From Pyrinomonadaceae bacterium (GTDB lineage Bacteria; Acidobacteriota; Blastocatellia; Pyrinomonadales; Pyrinomonadaceae): DNA of 51,490 nt. The notes beneath the pieces were generated by a model. It had not been told where the DNA came from, made no database searches, and saw only the letters and a program-made list of their open reading frames with translations. Position numbers and translations under genes: made by a program. The stretch lies in the NCBI GenBank assembly GCA_045807845.1, contig JBJMGQ010000085.1, positions 1 to 51,490 of the forward strand, given 5' to 3'. This document shows, piece by piece, positions 3,071-49,616 of this stretch (within the stretch, counting starts at the first letter, position 1; each line of letters starts with the position of its first letter).

Positions 3071-3574
3071 ATGGCTTCCAAAAAGTCCTCGAAGAAGTCG
3101 TCAAAGAAGGACGACAAGGAGACCGCGAAGAAGGGTGGCGCCAAGGGCGGCGCGAAGAAGTCGGCCGGTAAGAAGTCGGGCGGCGGCGGTGGCGCGAAGA
3201 AGGCCGCGTCAAAGGGCGGCGCGAAGAAAGGCGGCGCTAAGAAAGGCGGCGCGAAGGGCGGAGCGTCCAAGGGCGGAGCCAAGAAGGGCGGCGGCGCCAA
3301 GAAAGGCGGAGCCAAGAAAGGCGGGGGCGCGAAGAAGGGTGGAGCAAAGAAGGGCGGGGCCAAGAAGGGTGGAGCGAAGAAAGGCGGCTCGAAGAAGGGC
3401 GGCGGCAAGTCGCTCGTCAGTAAAGCCAAGGAGATCGTGGGCGACGTGCTCGTCGGCGCGGGCGTCGGCGCGTTGCTTGGCGCGGTTAAGGGCGGCGTGG
3501 AACAGATTAATGAGAAGGCCGAAGACGCCGAGACTGAGCTTAAGGGAGACGACGATCAGGGCGGAAAGAAGTAA
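3071..3574 (+). CDS. Lys/Gly/Ala-repeat (KKGGA)n basic protein with a C-terminal glycine-zipper-like hydrophobic segment and an acidic tail
   Basis: 167-aa ORF preceded by AAGGAG 9-14 nt upstream. About 110 aa of (A)KKGG(A) repeats are followed by the non-repetitive IVGDVLVGAGVGALLGAVKGGV and then EKAEDAETELKGDDD. Confidence 0.7.
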   Translation: MASKKSSKKSSKKDDKETAKKGGAKGGAKKSAGKKSGGGGGAKKAASKGGAKKGGAKKGGAKGGASKGGAKKGGGAKKGGAKKGGGAKKGGAKKGGAKKGGAKKGGSKKGGGKSLVSKAKEIVGDVLVGAGVGALLGAVKGGVEQINEKAEDAETELKGDDDQGGKK

Positions 3575-3622
3575 AGGCGGAAGCCCGACCTTGAGGGAGG
3601 GCGCAAGGGAAGTAGGAAGTAG

Positions 3623-3677
3623 GAACGCGGAACGATGAGCTGAAAGCCCGAAGCCTTCAGTTCATCGTTCCGCGTTC
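3623..3677. repeat. family A heptad-hairpin element, copy A2
   Basis: GAACGCGGAACGATGAGCTGAA (3623-3644) pairs with TTCAGTTCATCGTTCCGCGTTC (3656-3677), 21/22. Preceded by GGAAGTA GGAAGTA heptads. Confidence 0.9.
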
Positions 3678-3691
3678 TGCGTTCATCGTTC

Positions 3692-3725
3692 GGCGGAAGC
3701 CCGACCGCGAGGGAGGGCTTCCGCC
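3692..3725. terminator. GC-rich hairpin between convergent genes
   Basis: GGCGGAAGCC (3692-3701) pairs with GGCTTCCGCC (3716-3725). Confidence 0.55.
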
Positions 3726-5886: not shown

Positions 5887-6036
5887 GTTCGCCCCGGGAA
5901 TCCCGCCTGTTCCTCCGAAAAAAGACTTAACAGTCCTCTTTTATCACAAACTCGCGCCATTTTTTGAGCCGATTTCATAACCAGAGGTTCGCCCGTCCAA
6001 TTTTCAACCGCGCTCGCAGGTAGTTCTGACCTGTTT

Positions 6037-6301
6037 CTCAAACGTTCGGGCTTTTTTCTCGAACGTTCGAGCTTTGAGCCTCGACTTTCCGACTTTTTTC
6101 CGAACGTTTGGGCTCCGAGACGGAAACTCCGAGCTTTTTTCTCCAACCTCCGAGAAAAAAGCTGAAAAGTCGAGTCTCAAAGCTCGAACGTTGAGGCTCA
6201 GAGTCGAAACGTCGGGGCTCCGAGCCTCAACTTTCCGTCTCCGAGCCTCAACGTCGGGGCTCGAATCTCGGTTTTCGACCTTCGAGCGGGTAGTTCGGGG
6301 A
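6037..6301. repeat. tract of about 12 degenerate 21-bp tandem repeats containing palindromic CTCGAACGTTCGAG-type cores; also folds as a long imperfect palindrome
   Basis: Clean register at 6176-6280: CTCAAAGCTCGAACGTTGAGG / CTCAGAGTCGAAACGTCGGGG / CTCCGAGCCTCAACTTTCCGT / CTCCGAGCCTCAACGTCGGGG / CTCGAATCTCGGTTTTCGACC. Arms 6058-6090 and 6164-6197 are complementary, with an inner hairpin at 6131-6164. Confidence 0.85.
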
Positions 6302-6670
6302 ACCGAGGGGCGGCGAAAGTGTCTGGTTTATCAGGGAAAACGGCCAATCTACGCCGGAGGCTGGAATATATGTGTAAATTATGCTATTTCTTCGGTTAGA
6401 GGGCTTCGGAATGGAGCGGCGCTAACAACCGGCGCGTAGTCTAACGCATCTCAGGGGCGTGTCCGTGTTTGAACCTCCCTTTAGAGCTTTCGCCGGACGG
6501 CGGCCGAGAGTACAACTGGAATACAACGTCAGACATCTAATGTCTCTCGCATCAATGGGTTAGTTGTATGCGGGTGGGGCGGCCGACGGCGTATGTTTAG
6601 AAACTTAAGTGTCCGAAGCCACGTATGAGACGCTTTCCGCGGCATAAGCGTCTGGACGGGGGGGCGAGAT

Positions 6671-8383
6671 TTGAGCGAGAAGATGAAGAAGCAGGGGTTG
6701 GATCTGTTGGAGACGGGCGGCGAAAAATTCTATGAGGGCTACGGCGAGGTTGTCTCGGGCGACCCGGTCTCCGAGCGCGACATCGACGACGTGCTCCAAA
6801 AACTCGAAGCAGCGACCATCGGTGCGGTCGAATCTGACGAGGAACTGATCTCGGAGGTCGCCTCCCTCGCCACCGACGTGGAAGAGGAAGGCACGCTCGA
6901 CGAGGTTGACGACCTCGACCTCTCGGCGGGAGAGGACGAGAAGTCGGCCGACCCCGTCCGCGTCTACCTGCGCCAGATGGGCACCGTGCCGCTTCTGACG
7001 CGCGAGCAGGAAGTCTCCATCTCGCAGCGCATCGAGCGCGGCCAGATCAAGACGCACAAGGCCATCTCGCGCTCGCCCATCGCGGTCAAGGAACTCATCC
7101 GCATCGGCGACGAGTTGCAGACGGGCGACTTGAGCATCCGCGACATCGTCAACTTCTCCGATCAGGCCGACGTGTCCGAGGCCGAGGACAAGGCCGACGA
7201 GTATTTGCAGTGGACGCTCGAAGGCGTCGAGAACATCCGCAAGCACTTCAAAGAGGGCTTGAAGGAGTGGGAGCGGCTCTCCGCCGAGCAGAAGCTGACG
7301 CGCGGCAAGCCGACGAAGAAGCTCCTGCGCCTCAAGCGCAAGGTCGCGCGCACGCGCCTCGAAATCTCGCAGGAGATTAAGAACCTTAACCTGAAGGAGT
7401 CGGCGCGGCTGCGTCTGATCGACGCCATCGGGCGAGCGCACAAAGAGGTGCGCTCAGCCGAGCGCGAGATCAAGAAGCTCTCCGACAAGCTCGAAAACAA
7501 GCGCATCAAGCCCGACGCCGAGAAGGAGTACAAGCGTCAACTCCTCGCGGCCAAGCGCCGCTTGAAGAAGGTCGAAGAGGAGCACAGCATCTCGTTCGTC
7601 GAGATTAAGCGCACCTACCAGTCCATCGTTGCGGGCGAGGCCGAGACGCAGGAGGCCAAGCGCGAGCTGACCGAAGCGAACCTTCGTCTCGTCGTCTCGA
7701 TTGCGAAGAAGTACACGAACCGCGGGCTTCAGTTCCTCGACCTGATTCAGGAAGGCAACATCGGTCTGATGAAGGCGGTGGACAAGTTCGAGTGGCGGCG
7801 CGGCTACAAGTTCTCGACCTATGCGACGTGGTGGATTCGGCAGGCCGTGACGCGCGCGATTGCGGATCAGGCGCGCACCATCCGCATCCCCGTCCACATG
7901 ATCGAGACCATCAACAAGCTCATCCGCACCTCCCGCGCGCTCGTGCAGGAGTTGGGGCGCGAGCCGACGACCGAAGAGATTGCGGCGAAGGTGGACATGC
8001 CGGTGCCGAAGGTGCGCAGCGTCTTCAAGCTCGCGCAGCAGCCCATCTCTTTGGAGACGCCGATTGGTGAGGAGGAGGACTCGCACCTCGGCGACTTCAT
8101 CGAGGACAAGTCGCGTGTGAGCCCCGCGGACTCGGTCGTCACGACCAACCTGCGGCAGGTGACGGACGCGGTGCTGGCGACTTTGAGCCCGCGCGAAGAG
8201 GTCGTCATCAAACTCCGCTATGGGCTCGGGCCCGCGGGCGAGGAGCACACGCTCGAAGAGGTCGGCAAGAACTTCGACGTGACGCGCGAGCGCATCCGGC
8301 AGATTGAGGCGAAGGCGCTCCGCAAGCTCCGCCACCCGTCGCGCGCGCGCCTGCTCAAGGCGTTCACCGACAGCTTGCAGTAA
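6671..8383 (+). CDS. rpoD: RNA polymerase primary sigma factor (sigma-70)
   Basis: 570 aa with regions 1.2 through 4.2: [68 protein letters not shown]. The start is TTG 6671 or ATG 6683. Confidence 0.95.
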
Positions 8384-8540: not shown

Positions 8541-9362
8541 ATGGAAGACAGGATAGAGTCCATGTCGGCGTTCGAGCGTGTGAAGCTGGCGCGCCACCTC
8601 GAACGCCCCTACACGCTCGACTTCGTCGAGCGCCTCTTCGAGGAGTTCGTCGAGGTCAAAGGCGACCGGCGCTACGCCGAAGACCCGGCCATCGTCTGCG
8701 GCTTCGCGCGTTACCGAGGCGTCTCGGTCGCCGTCGTCGGCCAGCAGAAGGGGCGCGACGCCAAGCAGCGCCGCTTCCGCAACTTCGGGATGACCAAGCC
8801 CGAGGGCTACCGCAAGGCCCTGCGGCTGATGCAGCTCGCAGACAAGTTCGGCCGCCCCATCATCACCTTCATCGACACGCAGGGCGCCTACCCCGGCATC
8901 GACGCGGAGGAGCGCGGGCAGGCCGAGGCCATCGCGCGCAACCTCTTCGAGATGTCGCGCCTGCGCGTCCCCGTCGTCGGCGTCGTCATCGGCGAGGGCG
9001 GCTCGGGCGGCGCGCTCGCCATCGGCGTCGCCGACCAAGTCTTGATGCTTGAGAACGCCGTCTACTCCGTCATCACCCCCGAAGGCTGCGCCGCGATTCT
9101 GTTTAAGGACAGCGCGCAGGCGCCTCGCGCCGCGGAGTTTCTGCGCCTGACCGCGCCCGAGCTGTACCGCGCAGGCATCGTTGACCTAGTCGTCCCGGAG
9201 CCCGCGGGCGGCGCGCAGAACGACCACGACGAGACGGCCCGCCTGCTCGACACGGCGCTGTGGGAGAGCCTGCGGCAGACCTCCGCGCTCCCCGAGGCCG
9301 AGCGTCTCGCGCGCCGCTACAAGAAGCTCCGCGCGCTGGGCCGTTGGGAGACGTTGAAGTGA
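8541..9362 (+). CDS. accA: acetyl-CoA carboxylase carboxyltransferase subunit alpha
   Basis: 273 aa with FIDTQGAYPGIDAEERGQAEAIARNL and GEGGSGGALAIG. Somewhat shorter at the N-terminus than typical AccA. Confidence 0.88.
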   Translation: MEDRIESMSAFERVKLARHLERPYTLDFVERLFEEFVEVKGDRRYAEDPAIVCGFARYRGVSVAVVGQQKGRDAKQRRFRNFGMTKPEGYRKALRLMQLADKFGRPIITFIDTQGAYPGIDAEERGQAEAIARNLFEMSRLRVPVVGVVIGEGGSGGALAIGVADQVLMLENAVYSVITPEGCAAILFKDSAQAPRAAEFLRLTAPELYRAGIVDLVVPEPAGGAQNDHDETARLLDTALWESLRQTSALPEAERLARRYKKLRALGRWETLK

Positions 9363-9364
9363 AC

Positions 9365-9439
9365 GCAGAAGTAGGAACGCTGAACGATGAACTGTAAGCC
9401 TGTTATCTTCACTTCATCGTTCAGCGTTCCTACTTCCGC
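9365..9439. repeat. family A heptad-hairpin element, copy A3
   Basis: GCAGAAGTAGGAACGCTGAACGATGAA (9365-9391) pairs with TTCATCGTTCAGCGTTCCTACTTCCGC (9413-9439), 26/27. Starts 3 nt after the accA stop. Confidence 0.9.
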
Positions 9440-9515
9440 CTTCCGGCGCGGCTGTTTCCCATTTGCGAAGAATTAAGGGATAATTGAGGAAAATTTTAAA
9501 AGGAATGATAAAGAA

Positions 9516-15110: not shown

Positions 15111-15164
15111 GAATGAGGGCGGACGAGAGTCAGTGTGACTCTCGTCCGCCCTCATTCTGTTTTC
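15111..15164. terminator. bidirectional terminator hairpin between convergent yihY-like and M20 peptidase genes
   Basis: 22-bp perfect stem GAATGAGGGCGGACGAGAGTCA / TGACTCTCGTCCGCCCTCATTC, followed by TGTTTTC. Confidence 0.8.
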
Positions 15165-23288: not shown

Positions 23289-23365
23289 TTAACCACCGCA
23301 GACACAGAGACACGGCTTTGAAGATTTATAACTTCAAGCCGTGTCTCTGTGTCTGCGGTGGTTAA
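23289..23365. repeat. very long hairpin (about 34 bp stem) downstream of carB, family C (AGACACA-type units)
   Basis: TTAACCACCGCAGACACAGAGACACGGCTTTGAAG (23289-23323), loop ATTTATAA, and the complement at 23332-23365 with one bulged T. Followed by CTTTTCGG. Confidence 0.9.
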
Positions 23366-25447: not shown

Positions 25448-25948
25448 ATGACGACGACGGTCGAGATTCGCGCAGCCGTGTTGACGGTGAGCGACCGCAG
25501 CGCGCGCGGCGAGCGCGAGGACGAGTCGGGGCCGTTGCTGGCCGAGCTGCTGCGCGCGGCGGGTGCGACGGTCGTCTCGCAGGAGATCGTGTCGGACGAG
25601 TTAGAGCCGCTCGCCGAACGCCTGCGCGCGCTCGCCGAGCGCGAGGATGTCAACCTCGTCGTGACGACCGGCGGGACTGGCTTAGGCCCGCGCGACAACA
25701 CGCCCGAGGCCACGCGCTCTGTTGTCGAGAGGGAAGTGCCCGGCCTCGTCGAGGCGATGCGCGCCGAGACTCTCAAACAAACTCCGACGGCGCTGCTCTC
25801 GCGCGCCGTCTGCGGCACGCGCTCGGGCGCGCTCGTCGTCAACCTCCCCGGCTCGCCGAAGGGCGTGCGCGAATGCTTCGCCGTCCTCCGCCCCGTCCTC
25901 GCACACGCCGTCGCCCAACTCGCCGGCCGCGATCATGAAAGACAGTAG
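25448..25948 (+). CDS. MoaB/MogA-family molybdenum cofactor biosynthesis protein
   Basis: AAVLTVSDRSARGEREDESGP and LVVTTGGTGLGPRDNTPEA are typical of the MoCF_biosynth domain. Start trimmed to the ATG at 25448. Confidence 0.85.
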   Translation: MTTTVEIRAAVLTVSDRSARGEREDESGPLLAELLRAAGATVVSQEIVSDELEPLAERLRALAEREDVNLVVTTGGTGLGPRDNTPEATRSVVEREVPGLVEAMRAETLKQTPTALLSRAVCGTRSGALVVNLPGSPKGVRECFAVLRPVLAHAVAQLAGRDHERQ

Positions 25949-26051
25949 GCAGATGGCAGAGGGCAGTAGGCAGTCGCTTCCGCGTCGCGGACGTTGAAAG
26001 GTCAAATCGGAAGTTTCGATAGCAGGGCTTTCAACTGCCATCTGCCTACTG
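25942..26051. repeat. family D heptad array (GNNGGCA)n with a distal inverted copy, between moaB-like and nuoA
   Basis: GTAGGCA GATGGCA GAGGGCA GTAGGCA (25945-25972). The 17-nt CAGTAGGCAGATGGCAG (25943-25959) is complementary to CTGCCATCTGCCTACTG (26035-26051). Confidence 0.85.
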
Positions 26052-26576: not shown

Positions 26577-26580
26577 GATA

Positions 26581-26660
26581 GTTTTCAGTTTTTTGTTTTC
26601 AGTTTTCAGCAAGACCAAGCTGCTGACTGAAAACTGAAAACTGAAAACTGAAAACTGACT
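26581..26660 (+). repeat. family B (GTTTTCA)n/(TGAAAAC)n hairpin element, copy B1 (nuoA-nuoB spacer)
   Basis: Left arm of GTTTTCA units (26581-26609), loop AAGACCAAGCTG, right arm of 4 TGAAAAC units ending ..GAAAACTGACT directly before the nuoB ATG at 26661. Confidence 0.92.
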
Positions 26661-32585: not shown

Positions 32586-32834
32586 ATGCACCCGAAAGAC
32601 CTCGCCGCCAAGTACGAAGTGAAGGTCTTCGACAGCCCCTCGGCCGCCGAAGCCGCAGGCTTCCGACTCGGCCAACGCATGAGCCCACGCAACGTCTGGA
32701 ACCGTGACTCCGCGGCCTCCGCCATCCTCTTCGACCTGCTCGGCAAGCGGAAACGCGGCGAAGTCTCCGAGGTCGCCCTCGTGCTTGAGACGGCCAGCGT
32801 CGCGGGAGCCTTCAAGGGAAACGATGAAGTATGA
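32586..32834 (+). CDS. small hypothetical protein embedded between nuoC and nuoD
   Basis: 82-aa ORF with strongly GC3-biased codons, starting 4 nt after the nuoC stop. VFDSPSAAEAAGFRLGQRMSP weakly recalls the Ada N-terminal Zn-binding domain pattern, but without the cysteines (from memory, unverified). Confidence 0.5.
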   Translation: MHPKDLAAKYEVKVFDSPSAAEAAGFRLGQRMSPRNVWNRDSAASAILFDLLGKRKRGEVSEVALVLETASVAGAFKGNDEV

Positions 32835-32888
32835 ACGCTGAATGATGAACTGAAGGCAGCTTGTCTTACAGTTCGACGTTCAGCGTTC
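32833..32888. repeat. family A heptad-hairpin element, copy A4 (more diverged)
   Basis: GAACGCTGAATGATGAACTG (32833-32852) pairs with CAGTTCGACGTTCAGCGTTC (32869-32888), 17/20. Lies between the 82-aa ORF stop and the nuoD start. Confidence 0.8.
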
Positions 32889-32907
32889 CGAGTCCATAGT
32901 TCAAACC

Positions 32908-34041
32908 ATGCATCAAGTAGAAGTCGCCACCACGCAGGAGACCTTACTCGACAACCCCGAGATGGTCTTGAACATGGGGCCGCAGCACCCTTCGACCCAC
33001 GGCGTGCTGCGCGTCATCCTGCGCCTCGACGGCGAGACCGTCATCGACCTCGACTGCGACATCGGCTTCCTCCATCGCGGCATGGAGAAGATTGCCGAGA
33101 ATCGCCTCTACCCGATGATCGCTCCTTACTGGGACAGGCTCGACTACATCGCGGCGGTCTCGAACGGGCTGGTCTGGGTCGAGACCGTCGAGCAGATGAT
33201 GGGGCTCGAAATCCCTCGGCGCGCGCACTACATCCGCACCATCCTCACGGAGCTGAACCGCATCTCTTCGCATCTGCTCTGGCTCGCCACGCACGCGCTC
33301 GACATCGGCGCCTTCACCGTCCTGCTGCACGCCTTGCGCGAGCGCGAGGAGATTCTGAAGATATTCGAGCAGCAGTTCGGCGCGCGCCTCACCTGCCACG
33401 CGTGGCGCATCGGCGGCATGCCGAACGACGCCTACGAAGGCTTTACCGAGGACGTGCAGCAGTTCGTCGATAACTTCCCGAATCGCATCGACCAGTACGA
33501 GACGCTGCTCTCGGAGAATCGCATCTGGCTCGGGCGCACCGTGGGCATCGGCGTCATCTCGGCCGCCGACGCCATCGCCATCGGGCTCTCGGGGCCGTCC
33601 CTGCGCGGCTCGGGCGTCGCGTGGGACATACGCAAAAGCCGTCCGTATGCGGCCTACGGCGAACTCGACTTCGACGTGCCCGTCGGCGAGAACGGCGACA
33701 CGTATGACCGCTACCTCGTCCGCATCGAAGAGATGCGCCAGTCGCGCCGCATCGTCCAGCAGGCTTTGAAGCAGATGCCTGACGGCCCCGTCAACGCCAA
33801 GATTCCGAAGGTGCTCAAGCCCCCGGCCGGCGACTACTATCATTCCATCGAAGGCCCGAAGGGCGAGATCGGTTGTTACTTAGTCAGCGACGGCACGAGC
33901 CGCCCGTATCGCGTCCGCGTCCGCCCGCCGTGCCTCATCAACCTACAGGCGCTGCGGCAGATGTGCGTCGGCCACCTCGTCGCCGACGTGGTCGCCATCA
34001 TCGGCACGCTCGACATCGTGCTCGGAGAGATAGACCGTTAG
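32908..34041 (+). CDS. nuoD: NADH-quinone oxidoreductase subunit D
   Basis: [22 protein letters not shown], and [23 protein letters not shown] at the C-terminus. Confidence 0.95.
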
Positions 34042-34116
34042 TTTTCGGTTTTTAGTTTTCAGTTTTCAGCAAGACCAAGCTGCCGACTGAAAACCGAAAA
34101 CTGAAAACTGAAAACT
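34041..34116 (+). repeat. family B hairpin element, copy B2 (nuoD-cupin spacer)
   Basis: Nearly identical to B1, including the loop GCAAGACCAAGCTGC. Begins at the nuoD stop and ends ..GAAAACT directly before the ATG at 34117. Confidence 0.92.
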
Positions 34117-34587
34117 ATGAATGTCATTCGCCTACCCGTGCAGAAGATGACGCGCGAGGCTTTCGCGCCGTACGGGATCGTGCTCGACCGGCGCGGCTCC
34201 GTGGACGTGGACATTGGGATGGGCGTGCCGAGCATCACGGGCGCGACGGCCGACCCGCGCCCCTTCAAGTTCGACTTCATGGCGCGCCACCGCCACACGA
34301 TGCAGGTCTTCTCGCCGCTCGCGGGCTCGCAGGCCGTCATCTGCGTGGCGCCGCCCAACGGGCTCGACGCGCCCGACGTGGACAGGGTCGTCGCCTTTCT
34401 CGTCGAAGGCCGTCTGCCTTACGCATACTTCCGCGGCACCTGGCACACGCCGCCCTTCGCCACCGGCGAGTGGTACTCCTACCTCGTCGTAGACCGCAAG
34501 GGCACGCTCGACGAAGACCTTGAGCTGGTGGACATCAGGGCCGCGCGCGGCTGCACGTTCGAGATTGACCTGTCAACTGACGGCTGA
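34117..34587 (+). CDS. ureidoglycolate lyase (AllA) family cupin-fold protein embedded between nuoD and nuoH
   Basis: 156 aa. REAFAPYGIV, ARHRHTMQVFSPL, AVICVAP, AFLVEG..YFRGTWHTPPF and YLVVDRKG follow the AllA/PF04115 pattern (E. coli AllA: EAFSAYGDVI, ERHPLGTQAFIPM, NVWHHPLF, TIDRGG). Confidence 0.72.
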   Translation: MNVIRLPVQKMTREAFAPYGIVLDRRGSVDVDIGMGVPSITGATADPRPFKFDFMARHRHTMQVFSPLAGSQAVICVAPPNGLDAPDVDRVVAFLVEGRLPYAYFRGTWHTPPFATGEWYSYLVVDRKGTLDEDLELVDIRAARGCTFEIDLSTDG

Positions 34588-36515: not shown

Positions 36516-36617
36516 GTTTTCAGTTTTCAGTTTTTAGTTTTCAGTAAGAGCGGCAGTTACGCGAACGCTCCGAGAGGAAACGACAGGCTGAAAACTGAAA
36601 ACTGAAAACTGAAAACT
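36516..36617 (+). repeat. family B hairpin element, copy B3 (nuoI-nuoJ spacer)
   Basis: GTTTTCAGTTTTCAGTTTTTAGTTTTCAG (36516-36544), a 43-nt loop, then CTGAAAACTGAAAACTGAAAACTGAAAACT (36588-36617) directly before the nuoJ ATG. Confidence 0.92.
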
Positions 36618-37729: not shown

Positions 37730-37735
37730 GGGACA

Positions 37736-37821
37736 GTTTTCAGTTTTCAGTTCTCAGTGTTCAGCTAAGACAAGGAGCTGAATTCTGCGGACTGAAAACT
37801 GAAAACTGAAAACTGAAAACT
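37736..37821 (+). repeat. family B hairpin element, copy B4 (nuoK-nuoL spacer)
   Basis: GTTTTCAGTTTTCAGTTCTCAGTGTTCAG (37736-37764), loop with TAAGACAAGGAGCTG, and four TGAAAAC units ending ..GAAAACT directly before the nuoL ATG at 37822. Confidence 0.92.
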
Positions 37822-48617: not shown

Positions 48618-49616
48618 ATGTTCTTTCAGCACGCCGAGCAAGGGGCCACACAGGCGGCCGAGCACGCTGCGCCCGCGGCCGACCACGGCGCCGCCGCGAC
48701 CGAGCACGCCGCGGCCGGGGCGGAGCACCACGTCCCCCTCATCGTCGAGAAGCTCAACCAACTCGTCGGCGAGCCGGTGCATCAGTTTCAGGTTCACTAC
48801 ACGAAGCCGCTCTGGGATAAGTTCTTCCACTTCTTCGGCACGACGGCCGAGTCGGTCTTCGGCCCTTACACGCCCGAGAACGCGGTGCCGTGGTACACGG
48901 TGATGTTCGTGCTGGCGGCGCTCTTCACGGTGCTGCTCGTCCTCCTCTTGAAGCCTCGCAAACTGTCGGTTGAGGAGCCGGGCTTTGCACAGTTGACGCT
49001 GGAGACGGGCGTGCTGGCCGTGCGCGACCTGCTGGTCGATAACGTCGGGCCGCACGGCATGAAGTATCTCCCCGTCATCGGCACCTTCGGCATTCTCATT
49101 CTCATCTCGAATTTGATGGGGCTCATTCCCGGGCTGATGTCACCGACGGCCTCGACCTCCGTGACGTTCGCGCTCGGCATCTCTTCGTTCGTCTACTACA
49201 ACGCCATCGGCATCAGGGAGAATGGGCTGGTCGGACACCTCAAACACTTCATGGGGCCGATCATCTGGCTCGCGCCGTTGATGTTTATCATCGAGCTGAT
49301 CAGTAATCTCGTCCGCCCGATGTCGCTCGGCATTCGTCTGTTCGGCAACCTCTTCGGCGACGAGCAGATTCTCGGCACCATCTCGAATCTCGCGCCGTGG
49401 ACGAAGTGGGGGCTGCCGGTCTTAATCATGCCGCTCAGTCTCTTCGTCGCCTTCATGCAGACCTTCATCTTCGTGCTGCTGTCGATTCTCTACATCAGCG
49501 AAGTCTCGCACCACCACGACGAGCACGAGCACGGCCACGAGACGGGCGGCCACGATCACTCGCATGACTTGACGACCGACGCGGGCGGCGTGATGACGCT
49601 GCCGTCGCACACATAA
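48618..49616 (+). CDS. atpB: F0F1 ATP synthase subunit a, with N-terminal Ala-rich and C-terminal His-rich extensions
   Basis: Essential Arg motif LGIRLFGNLFGDE. The C-terminal tail is HHHDEHEHGHETGGHDHSHD. Confidence 0.92.
   Translation: MFFQHAEQGATQAAEHAAPAADHGAAATEHAAAGAEHHVPLIVEKLNQLVGEPVHQFQVHYTKPLWDKFFHFFGTTAESVFGPYTPENAVPWYTVMFVLAALFTVLLVLLLKPRKLSVEEPGFAQLTLETGVLAVRDLLVDNVGPHGMKYLPVIGTFGILILISNLMGLIPGLMSPTASTSVTFALGISSFVYYNAIGIRENGLVGHLKHFMGPIIWLAPLMFIIELISNLVRPMSLGIRLFGNLFGDEQILGTISNLAPWTKWGLPVLIMPLSLFVAFMQTFIFVLLSILYISEVSHHHDEHEHGHETGGHDHSHDLTTDAGGVMTLPSHT

Follow-up and report, generated by a model that had tools for sequence, protein, structure and literature searches.

VNTR loci, as used in MLVA typing, are head-to-tail arrays of units of 10–100 bp that occupy a fixed position in the genome and differ between close strains by whole units. 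REP sequences and BIMEs are imperfect palindromes of 15–40 bp, extragenic, regularly spaced in alternating orientation, species-specific and fast-evolving, and a role in DNA architecture or supercoiling has been proposed for them (PMC2817692, PMC3733652). REPs are scattered through the genome in more than 100 copies (PMC2817692), carry GTAG or CGTC tags and are partnered by a RAYT. The BrickBuilt elements of Porphyromonas gingivalis consist of spacer-free repeats of ~21–23 nt, are found in intergenic DNA near gene starts and have distinct 'leader' and 'tail' units at their edges; they are present in 19 copies per genome, have inverted-repeat ends and possess a demonstrated promoter activity (PMC4596501). 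The tract described here lies between rpoD and a divergent membrane-protein gene on a contig of a Pyrinomonadaceae bacterium, and the whole stretch of DNA that was analysed, 51,490 nucleotides in length, is referred to as the window. As a described object the tract is new, yet it matches a known kind: an intergenic minisatellite, in this case with a palindromic unit.

The closest counterparts of the tract are VNTR loci with regard to behaviour, and tandem REP clusters (PMC2817692, PMC3733652) or BrickBuilt (PMC4596501) with regard to anatomy. All the traits of a VNTR are present across the window and six related species, namely a 21-bp head-to-tail array, changes in copy number by whole units, and a fixed locus with conserved flanks. 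Unlike VNTR loci, however, the tract has a palindromic unit that is found in both orientations and so gives rise to long inverted repeats, it has a 7-nt sub-period, and the array lasts across a whole genus while the sequence of the unit is replaced. With REP and BIME it shares imperfect palindromes (~15–20 bp within each 21-bp unit), regular spacing, alternating orientation, extragenic location, species specificity and fast evolution, but its period is far shorter than that of the BIME modules, none of its units ends in GTAG or CGTC, and no RAYT was detected among the 19 ORFs of the window that were scanned. With BrickBuilt it shares the spacer-free repeat of similar length, the intergenic position near gene starts and the distinct edge units, whilst inverted-repeat ends and promoter activity are established for BrickBuilt. 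In the sequence available the tract lacks the dispersal that characterises both REP and BrickBuilt, being confined to one locus in 51 kb.

The periodicity of the tract is clear from three approaches. Autocorrelation over positions 6037–6290 gave values of 0.53 for lag 21 and 0.49 for lag 42, whereas 500 shuffled controls did not exceed 0.38 over lags 10–60; weaker secondary peaks at lags 7, 14, 28 and 35 correspond to the 7-bp sub-period. TRF called period-21 arrays at 6034–6075 and 6158–6220 and, under laxer settings, covered the entire tract. When stacked, the tract of ~250 bp resolves into 12 decayed units, one of which is 20 nt long instead of 21, and these match the consensus T-GAGCCCCAAC-GTTCGGGCTC at a mean of 14 of 21 positions (~67%). 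An earlier note, made from the sequence of the window, had described degenerate 21-bp tandem repeats in front of rpoD; by all three measures these are real, and they are better bounded at ~6033–6290 than at 6037–6301, with 6290–6325 assigned to a conserved flank (Table 1).

Table 1. Coordinates of the array, its inverted repeats and its surroundings in the window
Feature	Position	Strand	Basis and remarks
Membrane-protein gene, 308 aa	4960–5886	-	ORF list, translation; divergent from rpoD
Conserved left flank (..CTTTTATCACAAACTCRCGCCATTTTTTGAGCSGATTTCA..GGTTCGCCCGT..)	5887–5999		Near-identical in L161, L162, L163, L166, L167 and L169
Window-specific stretch (AATTTTCAACCGCGCTCGCAGGTAGTTCTGACC)	6000–6032		Read from the sequence
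Array	6033–6290		Autocorrelation, TRF, stacked units
Long imperfect palindrome	6062–6192		Arms 6062–6100 and 6154–6192, 90% complementary; repeat search and MFE structures
Second long palindrome	6181–6261		Arms 6181–6220 and 6222–6261, 78% complementary, 1 nt between
Last well-formed unit (CTCAACGTCGGGGC..)	6247–6267		Closes the array in L161, L162, L163, L166, L167 and L169 too
Conserved right flank	6287–6325		Small hairpin (GGGTAGTTC-GGG-GAACC), then GGCGGCGAAAG; kept in L162, L163, L166, L167 and L169
rpoD leader	6326–6682	+	84–91% identical across the clade (blastn, alignment), array-less relative included
rpoD, primary sigma-70	6671–8383	+	Pfam Sigma70 r1.2, r2, r3, r4

Each unit is laid out as a centre base and two arms of 10 nt, which are mutually complementary in the consensus, and the consensus is nearly identical to its own reverse complement. 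The units abut head to tail (21 bp = 3 × 7) and both orientations are represented; the left half of the array is composed of a T-tract type (CTCGAACGTTCGAGC followed by TTTTTT) and the right half of a type with a CTCCGAG spacer. The palindromic AACGTT cores of the earlier description hold in part, since exact AACGTT occurs four times in the tract, but the full CGAACGTTCG is present once only, at 6060–6069. A CRISPR array was rejected because the units abut and the apparent 'spacers' of 5–6 nt are themselves repeated. A coding repeat was likewise rejected, as no frame is open across all species; two related arrays contain stops in all six frames, and the two ORFs that cross the tract in the window are not conserved, in line with their initial dismissal as repeat noise.

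The array occupies part of an intergenic region of 784 bp (5887–6670). The divergent gene on its left encodes a protein whose N-terminal part contains hydrophobic segments and is followed by a Pro/Gln-rich linker and a small C-terminal domain; the protein matches no Pfam or NCBIfam family, and no DNA-binding domain or helix-turn-helix was found in it. We found 288 homologues of this protein, and the gene order (cyclase, H1-like protein, 130-aa ORF, response regulator, membrane protein, divergent rpoD, accA, ECF sigma factor) is unchanged in all the relatives fetched. The promoter and 5′ UTR that belong to the membrane-protein gene are presumed to lie in the conserved left flank; a search for sigma-70-type promoters gave no match. 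Between this flank and the array, the window-specific stretch repeats part of the right-flank motif GGTAGTTC in direct orientation. The stretch is missing from L161, L162 and L169, where the first unit directly follows GGTTCGCCCGTYCGACCTGAAACCCGAAC. On the other side, the rpoD leader has no Rfam match and contains blocks at 100% identity, with too little variation for covariation analysis. The assignment of rpoD as the neighbour of the membrane-protein gene is borne out by Pfam regions 1.2, 2, 3 and 4 of the sigma factor; its start, placed at 6671 (TTG) by the earlier note, may instead be the ATG at 6683 (MKKQ...), where gene callers put it in the relatives.

The inverted repeats follow from the organisation of the array. 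A palindromic unit repeated in tandem creates a dyad axis every 10.5 bp, which accounts for the many long imperfect inverted repeats and also for the very stable folds of both strands, each far better than shuffled sequences (z = -6.3 for the plus strand and -8.0 for the minus strand). The longest-spanning of the two palindromes in Table 1 exists because units sit in both orientations; the reverse complementarity between the left and right parts of the tract noted previously was recovered here in its arms, together with the inner hairpin (~6131–6164). In all seven arrays, those of the window and the six species, the complementarity between the two arms of one unit (~5 of 10 positions) is the same as that between arms of different units. 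What is palindromic is thus the consensus of the whole array and not the single hairpin, and selection on individual hairpins is ruled out by this comparison. The consensus units of different species do show mirrored, seemingly compensatory differences. From established mechanisms we infer that concerted evolution which includes inverted units, or quasi-palindrome template switching, would yield palindromy of this sort in the absence of selection.

Close relatives were found with the fast-evolving membrane protein as query and not with RpoD, for which scans of genome and metagenome contig collections gave, among the matches listed, distant relatives at ≤70–85% identity; the best of the RpoD matches listed from a species-level genome collection belong to Pyrinomonadaceae (Acidobacteriota, Blastocatellia). 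Related loci from six species were compared (L161, L162, L163–165, L166, L167/168 and L169/170). RpoD is 97–99% identical to that of the window in the four species where it can be read (L162, L163, L167 and L169), the comparison leaving aside L166, with its broken rpoD frame, and L161, where the locus ends before rpoD. Fourfold-degenerate rpoD sites in the same four are 80–84% identical, and taken together these values define a clade within the Pyrinomonadaceae at the level of a genus. All six species sampled have a 21-bp-periodic array at the same place and between the same conserved flanks, with 9–20 units per array and a distance between flank anchors of 318–676 bp. In a more distant pair (L171/L172, RpoD 93% identical) both genes and the leader are present and the array is absent from an intergenic region of 528 bp, although this relative is too diverged to act as an empty site. 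These comparisons show that the array arose in one genus-level clade and stayed at one locus.

Across the arrays, units match their own consensus at 14–16 of 21 positions. The first unit is recognisably shared by several species and the last (CTCAAYGTCGGGGC) by all of them, and the T-tract units of the left half are likewise recognisable between species. The interiors, by contrast, are species-specific expansions with different arms that cannot be aligned: GGAGGAACGTTCCTCC-type units in L163, GAGACGGAACGTTGGCTCTC units in L169, and units of GCTCGGAGGTCCGAGC followed by TTTTT in L167. As the last unit is orthologous in all the relatives, the edges of the array are stable and it is the interior that turns over. 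Most consensus units have the triplets GAG..GAA-TTC..CTC in common and differ at the mirrored inner positions.

Turnover can be observed directly between close strains. L169 and L170, from different samples, are 99.6% identical over 6.4 kb and the sole gap between them is one 21-bp unit. A soil contig (X5) whose flank is 99% identical to that of the window lacks 167 bp of the array (~7–8 units) and has gained 21 bp, and in others (X1, X30; flanks 97–99% identical) interior segments have been inserted, inverted or replaced. At most 13% of the 31-mers of the tract are present in any public run. The interior has thus been expanded, contracted and rearranged repeatedly by whole units, so that every species and many strains carry a version of their own. 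A short divergence does not always bring a change in the array, since L163 and L164 (99.3% identical) have identical arrays. Stable edges combined with whole-unit turnover of the interior are minisatellite behaviour, and the satellite-like repeat that the earlier note listed as its third option is supported by these pairs and contigs: copy number is hypervariable among close strains, which the note had named as a sign of a neutral satellite.

We consider it probable (about 0.6) that the tract is a lineage-specific palindromic minisatellite of the VNTR type, which turns over through slippage, unequal exchange and inversion and which influences the genes on either side, if at all, by way of DNA architecture. 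Units would be gained and lost by replication slippage or by unequal recombination between units, and inversion or template switching would also take place between units in opposite orientation. This would spread variants to both arms and keep the consensus palindromic with no selection on single hairpins. If the array has an effect on rpoD or its neighbour, this would be exerted through the architecture of the DNA upstream of the presumed promoters. One candidate is an AT-enriched spacer of variable length: the GC content of the arrays is 52–55%, against ~64% for the whole window. Another is an intrinsic bend caused by helically phased T-tracts, and a third is a set of cruciform-prone palindromes at a site where divergent transcription would create negative supercoiling.

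Tracts of A4+/T4+ are helically phased in six of the seven arrays (R = 0.76–0.99), with P ≤ 0.025 in five of these six and P = 0.096 in L162, which has two tracts only; this phasing is a consequence of the 21-bp period. The bend predicted from the sequence is strongest in L167, with 18 phased T-tracts. Runs of T are also strongly biased, 30 being in the rpoD sense and 3 on the opposite strand, and the units of L167 contain 16 terminator-like motifs facing rpoD where 2.9 are expected, whilst the units of the window score none. The L167 motifs hint at a possible directional role, and together with the phasing and the T-run bias they are compatible with an architectural or insulating effect on the genes on both sides. 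The retention of the array, its 21-bp period and the recurring triplets may be due to constraint and not to concerted evolution.

To a specific role in protein binding or as RNA, the two combined, we assign about a quarter of the probability. Helically phased palindromic sites had suggested an iteron-like array or one for a cooperative regulator, and it is conceivable that the palindromic units, two helical turns apart, are occupied by a dimeric regulator or by a nucleoid-associated protein. The resulting filament or loop would tune one or both of rpoD and the divergent gene, with copy number as a rheostat. The 21-bp period would place all such sites on one face of the helix, the shared triplets and the presence of the array in six of six species speak in favour of this reading, and a gene for a histone H1-like Lys/Ala-rich protein is located at a distance of 2.5 kb within the conserved gene order. 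We nevertheless judge this rather unlikely, for the arrays of L166 and L167 contain no exact AACGTT, the fit of units to their own consensus is loose, the interior differs among near-identical strains and a close relative (L171) manages without any array. Nor is the motif enriched beyond the tract, where the earlier note had proposed to search for the core: the consensus pattern GAGNNNRAANNTTYNNNCTC is at chance level in the rest of the 51-kb window. The absence of the core from two orthologous arrays and this lack of enrichment speak against an operator array for a sequence-specific regulator. Among the nearby genes, Pfam searches found no sequence-specific DNA-binding domain, and in the response regulator they recognised nothing but a receiver domain. 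The two flanks do not maintain a fixed helical phase relative to each other: modulo 10.5, the distances between the anchors come to 10, 4, 3, 9.5, 1, 4 and 1, and they are not constant modulo 21 either. We infer that the array has no sequence-specific partner. Replication iterons, bound by an initiator protein, resemble the tract in unit length and phasing, as plasmid and phage iterons are repeats of ~20 bp phased by two helical turns, but they are sequence-conserved direct repeats with an adjacent Rep gene and an AT-rich unwinding element, none of which is found here. The units of the tract are palindromic, variable, in both orientations, at ~67% to consensus, replaced between species and absent in one relative; the genes around the array (rpoD, accA, response regulator, membrane protein) include no initiator, with neither rep nor dnaA nearby; and a blastn search against 72,556 plasmids returned nothing. 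The iteron reading is accordingly extremely improbable, and an origin of replication was excluded by the absence of a DnaA-box cluster, of an origin-type GC-skew switch and of an initiator gene.

The structured ncRNA that was the other suggestion of the earlier note is not supported either, and we think it unlikely that the tract is a transcribed array of hairpins, whether within an exceptionally long rpoD leader or as an RNA of its own, with stem-loops that serve as terminators or for insulation, stabilisation or processing. The stable folding of both strands, the strand bias of the T-runs and the 16 hairpin-plus-U-run motifs of L167, all in the rpoD sense, are compatible with such a role; in one more distant relative a single low-depth metatranscriptome contig extends 175 nt upstream of 6326, and elsewhere in the genome hairpins built of heptamers sit between the cistrons of one apparent operon and are thus presumably transcribed. 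In seven metatranscriptomes, however, contigs run from 6326–6446 through the rpoD leader into the coding sequence and none lies on the tract, which, given the very low depth and the strain-specific nature of the tract, is weak evidence. Rfam gave no match at gathering scores and, at E values up to 10, only sub-threshold noise from generic (miRNA) hairpins. The better-folding strand differs between species with neither consistently ahead, so the G-U signature of an RNA is lacking, and unit-specific compensation is absent as well. The units of the window itself are not scored as terminators, and because the upstream gene is divergent there is no read-through to stop. Equally improbable is a cluster derived from a mobile element, that is, an amplified REP- or BIME-like palindrome or a MITE-borne minisatellite that should occupy many genomic loci. 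Imperfect palindromes of REP size in both orientations fit this idea, tandemly reiterated REP clusters are known (PMC3733652, PMC2817692) as is a 23-nt minisatellite inside a MITE (PMC4596501), a REP-like GTAG..CTAC hairpin adjoins the L167 array, and the short direct repeat GGTAGTTC flanks the array of the window on both sides. Set against this are the absence of a second array from the 51-kb window and the one array in each related 8-kb locus, the untagged units, the lack of evident terminal inverted repeats, and a locus that is orthologous in all species and not scattered.

A palindromic minisatellite upstream of a housekeeping sigma factor invites comparison with the tracts of contingency loci, such as the 7-bp repeats in front of hmw1A in Haemophilus influenzae (PMC8262952, PMC12721329). 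Both are strain-variable upstream arrays that could grade expression, but contingency tracts are simple direct repeats of 1–7 nt with a demonstrated effect on expression, in contrast to the 21-bp palindromic unit beside rpoD. If copy number did alter the expression of rpoD, this would be a hypervariable control of a housekeeping sigma factor, which would be unusual. In any case the tract is a well-documented case of such a minisatellite from uncultured soil Acidobacteria, and it could be used as a strain-typing marker. The array also accounts for the breaks that assemblies of this clade show in front of rpoD. Despite its variable copy number, it is retained in every member of the clade sampled, so that a role in DNA architecture is conceivable.

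Many other hairpins, with arms built of heptamers in tandem, are found in the window. One of the families, (AGTTTTC)n ... (ACTGAAA)n, is located between cistrons of the NADH dehydrogenase operon, with the right arm ending at the start codon, and another (GAACGMT) is found at gene ends; relatives have hairpins in the same intergenic places made of other heptamers. A further Blastocatellia contig (L138) also has a palindromic array of 21-bp units, unrelated to the present one and situated at another intergenic position, downstream of rpoD. Palindromic repeats with a period of 7 or 21 thus characterise the group in general, and this makes a mutational or structural origin of the tract more likely than an rpoD-specific role. 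A bolder reading is that palindromic repeats in multiples of 7 make up a family-wide Pyrinomonadaceae system with its own machinery for generating or binding them, comprising the heptamer hairpins that stand between cistrons and at the ends of many genes as well as the 21-bp palindromic arrays, in which the array upstream of rpoD would serve as a copy-number rheostat, or as supercoil-sensing cruciforms, tuning the primary sigma factor and creating heterogeneity of expression among strains. We regard this as a long shot, although a mechanism shared by the heptamer- and 21-periodic palindromes would, if true, raise the importance of the locus.

Heptamer repeat families are known in other phyla (PMC4679880, PMC2700814), and the recurrence of heptamer-based repeats in bacterial phyla far apart from one another is a standing puzzle (PMC4679880, PMC4692102); our literature search found no description of such families in Acidobacteria. 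The TAACTGA repeats (PMC4679880) and the four- and five-fold heptanucleotide elements of Geobacter metallireducens (PMC2700814) are like the 7-nt sub-period of the array, but the tract differs from these families in its main period of 21 and in its position before two genes rather than between cistrons. Among the heptamer-built hairpins of the window, one family, (AAACTGA)4, which is found just before start codons, bears a close resemblance to the TAACTGA repeats (PMC4679880).

The leader of rpoD, which lies between the 21-bp array and the gene, is well conserved. Identity is 84–91% over the clade, the array-less relative included, with long blocks of 100% identity such as GCATCTCAGGGGCGTGTCCGTGTTTGAACCTCCCT and GAAGCCACGTATGAGACGCTTTCCGCGGC, and metatranscriptome contigs give continuous coverage from the leader into the coding sequence. 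A search of Rfam returned nothing matching the leader, and the variation across it is too small for covariation. A hairpin within it (~6505–6571) is replaced in some relatives. For rpoD itself there are two candidate starts, the TTG at 6671 of the listed ORF versus the ATG at 6683 used in the gene calls of the relatives (MKKQGLDLL...); the 12 nt separating them are identical across all relatives.

Features of the window, with coordinates
Feature	Coordinates	Details
rpoD leader	6326-6682	~350 nt
nuo-operon hairpins (n=4)	26580-26658, 34039-34117, 36516-36617, 37734-37821	left arm (AGTTTTC)4, right arm (ACTGAAA)4
Second family of tandem-heptamer hairpins	916-996, 3608-3700, 9361-9443, 32820-32901	arms 25-36 nt, 76-94% complementary
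Perfect hairpin	23289-23365	30-nt arms, 100% complementary
Perfect hairpin	15111-15157	22-nt arms, 100% complementary
Lys/Ala-rich ORF	3071-3574	coding repeats 3191-3404

Heptamers are the building blocks of two families of hairpins in the window. Members of one family are intercistronic in the NADH dehydrogenase operon, at nuoA|nuoB, after nuoD, at nuoI|nuoJ and before nuoL, and in each case the ATG of the next gene lies 0–3 nt past the end of the right arm. TAACTGA repeats situated directly 5′ of start codons have been described in Beggiatoaceae, cyanobacteria and Bacteroidetes (PMC4679880), and the AAACTGA heptamer of the nuo hairpins differs from these by one base. Upstream of nuoA, the intergenic stretch 25943–25974 holds a direct heptamer repeat, CAGTAGG × 4.6, which is without an inverted partner. 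Hairpins of the second family, built from GAACGAT, GAACGCT, GAAGGAG and other heptamers, are placed at the 3′ ends of genes or between cistrons. The same intergenic sites carry hairpins in the relatives too, constructed there from different heptamers: CGTGAAC/CGTAAAC in the array bearers L167 and L169, and GGCTAGA together with AAAAGGC in the array-less L171. The two perfect hairpins have arms without heptamer make-up and may be terminators.

Repeats of 21 bp were also observed elsewhere. In L167 the array (L167:2835–3290, reverse strand) has expanded to ~20 T-tract units, which score as 16 terminator-like motifs, all directed toward rpoD. An insertion separating this array from the left flank consists of a further large hairpin (L167:3277–3369) that resembles REP elements in its GTAG..CTAC ends. 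Another Blastocatellia contig, L138, whose RpoD C-terminus is 85% identical, carries downstream of the rpoD terminator hairpin a 21-bp palindromic array (L138:945–1150) unrelated to that of the window; its units occur in both orientations and consist of GAGATGCTTCATCTC and a further 6 nt. The sole other stretch of 21-bp period in the window, GCGGCCGAGCACGCCGCGGCC × 3.6 at 48630–48748, is probably a coding repeat of seven residues, since it lies inside an ORF (48618–49616). Coding repeats, of 15 and 30 bp, also make up the Lys/Ala-rich ORF, whose position in the gene order is kept in all relatives. Its similarity to DNA-binding proteins of the histone H1-like and Hc2 types is weak (E ~1e-5, under the curated cut-offs).
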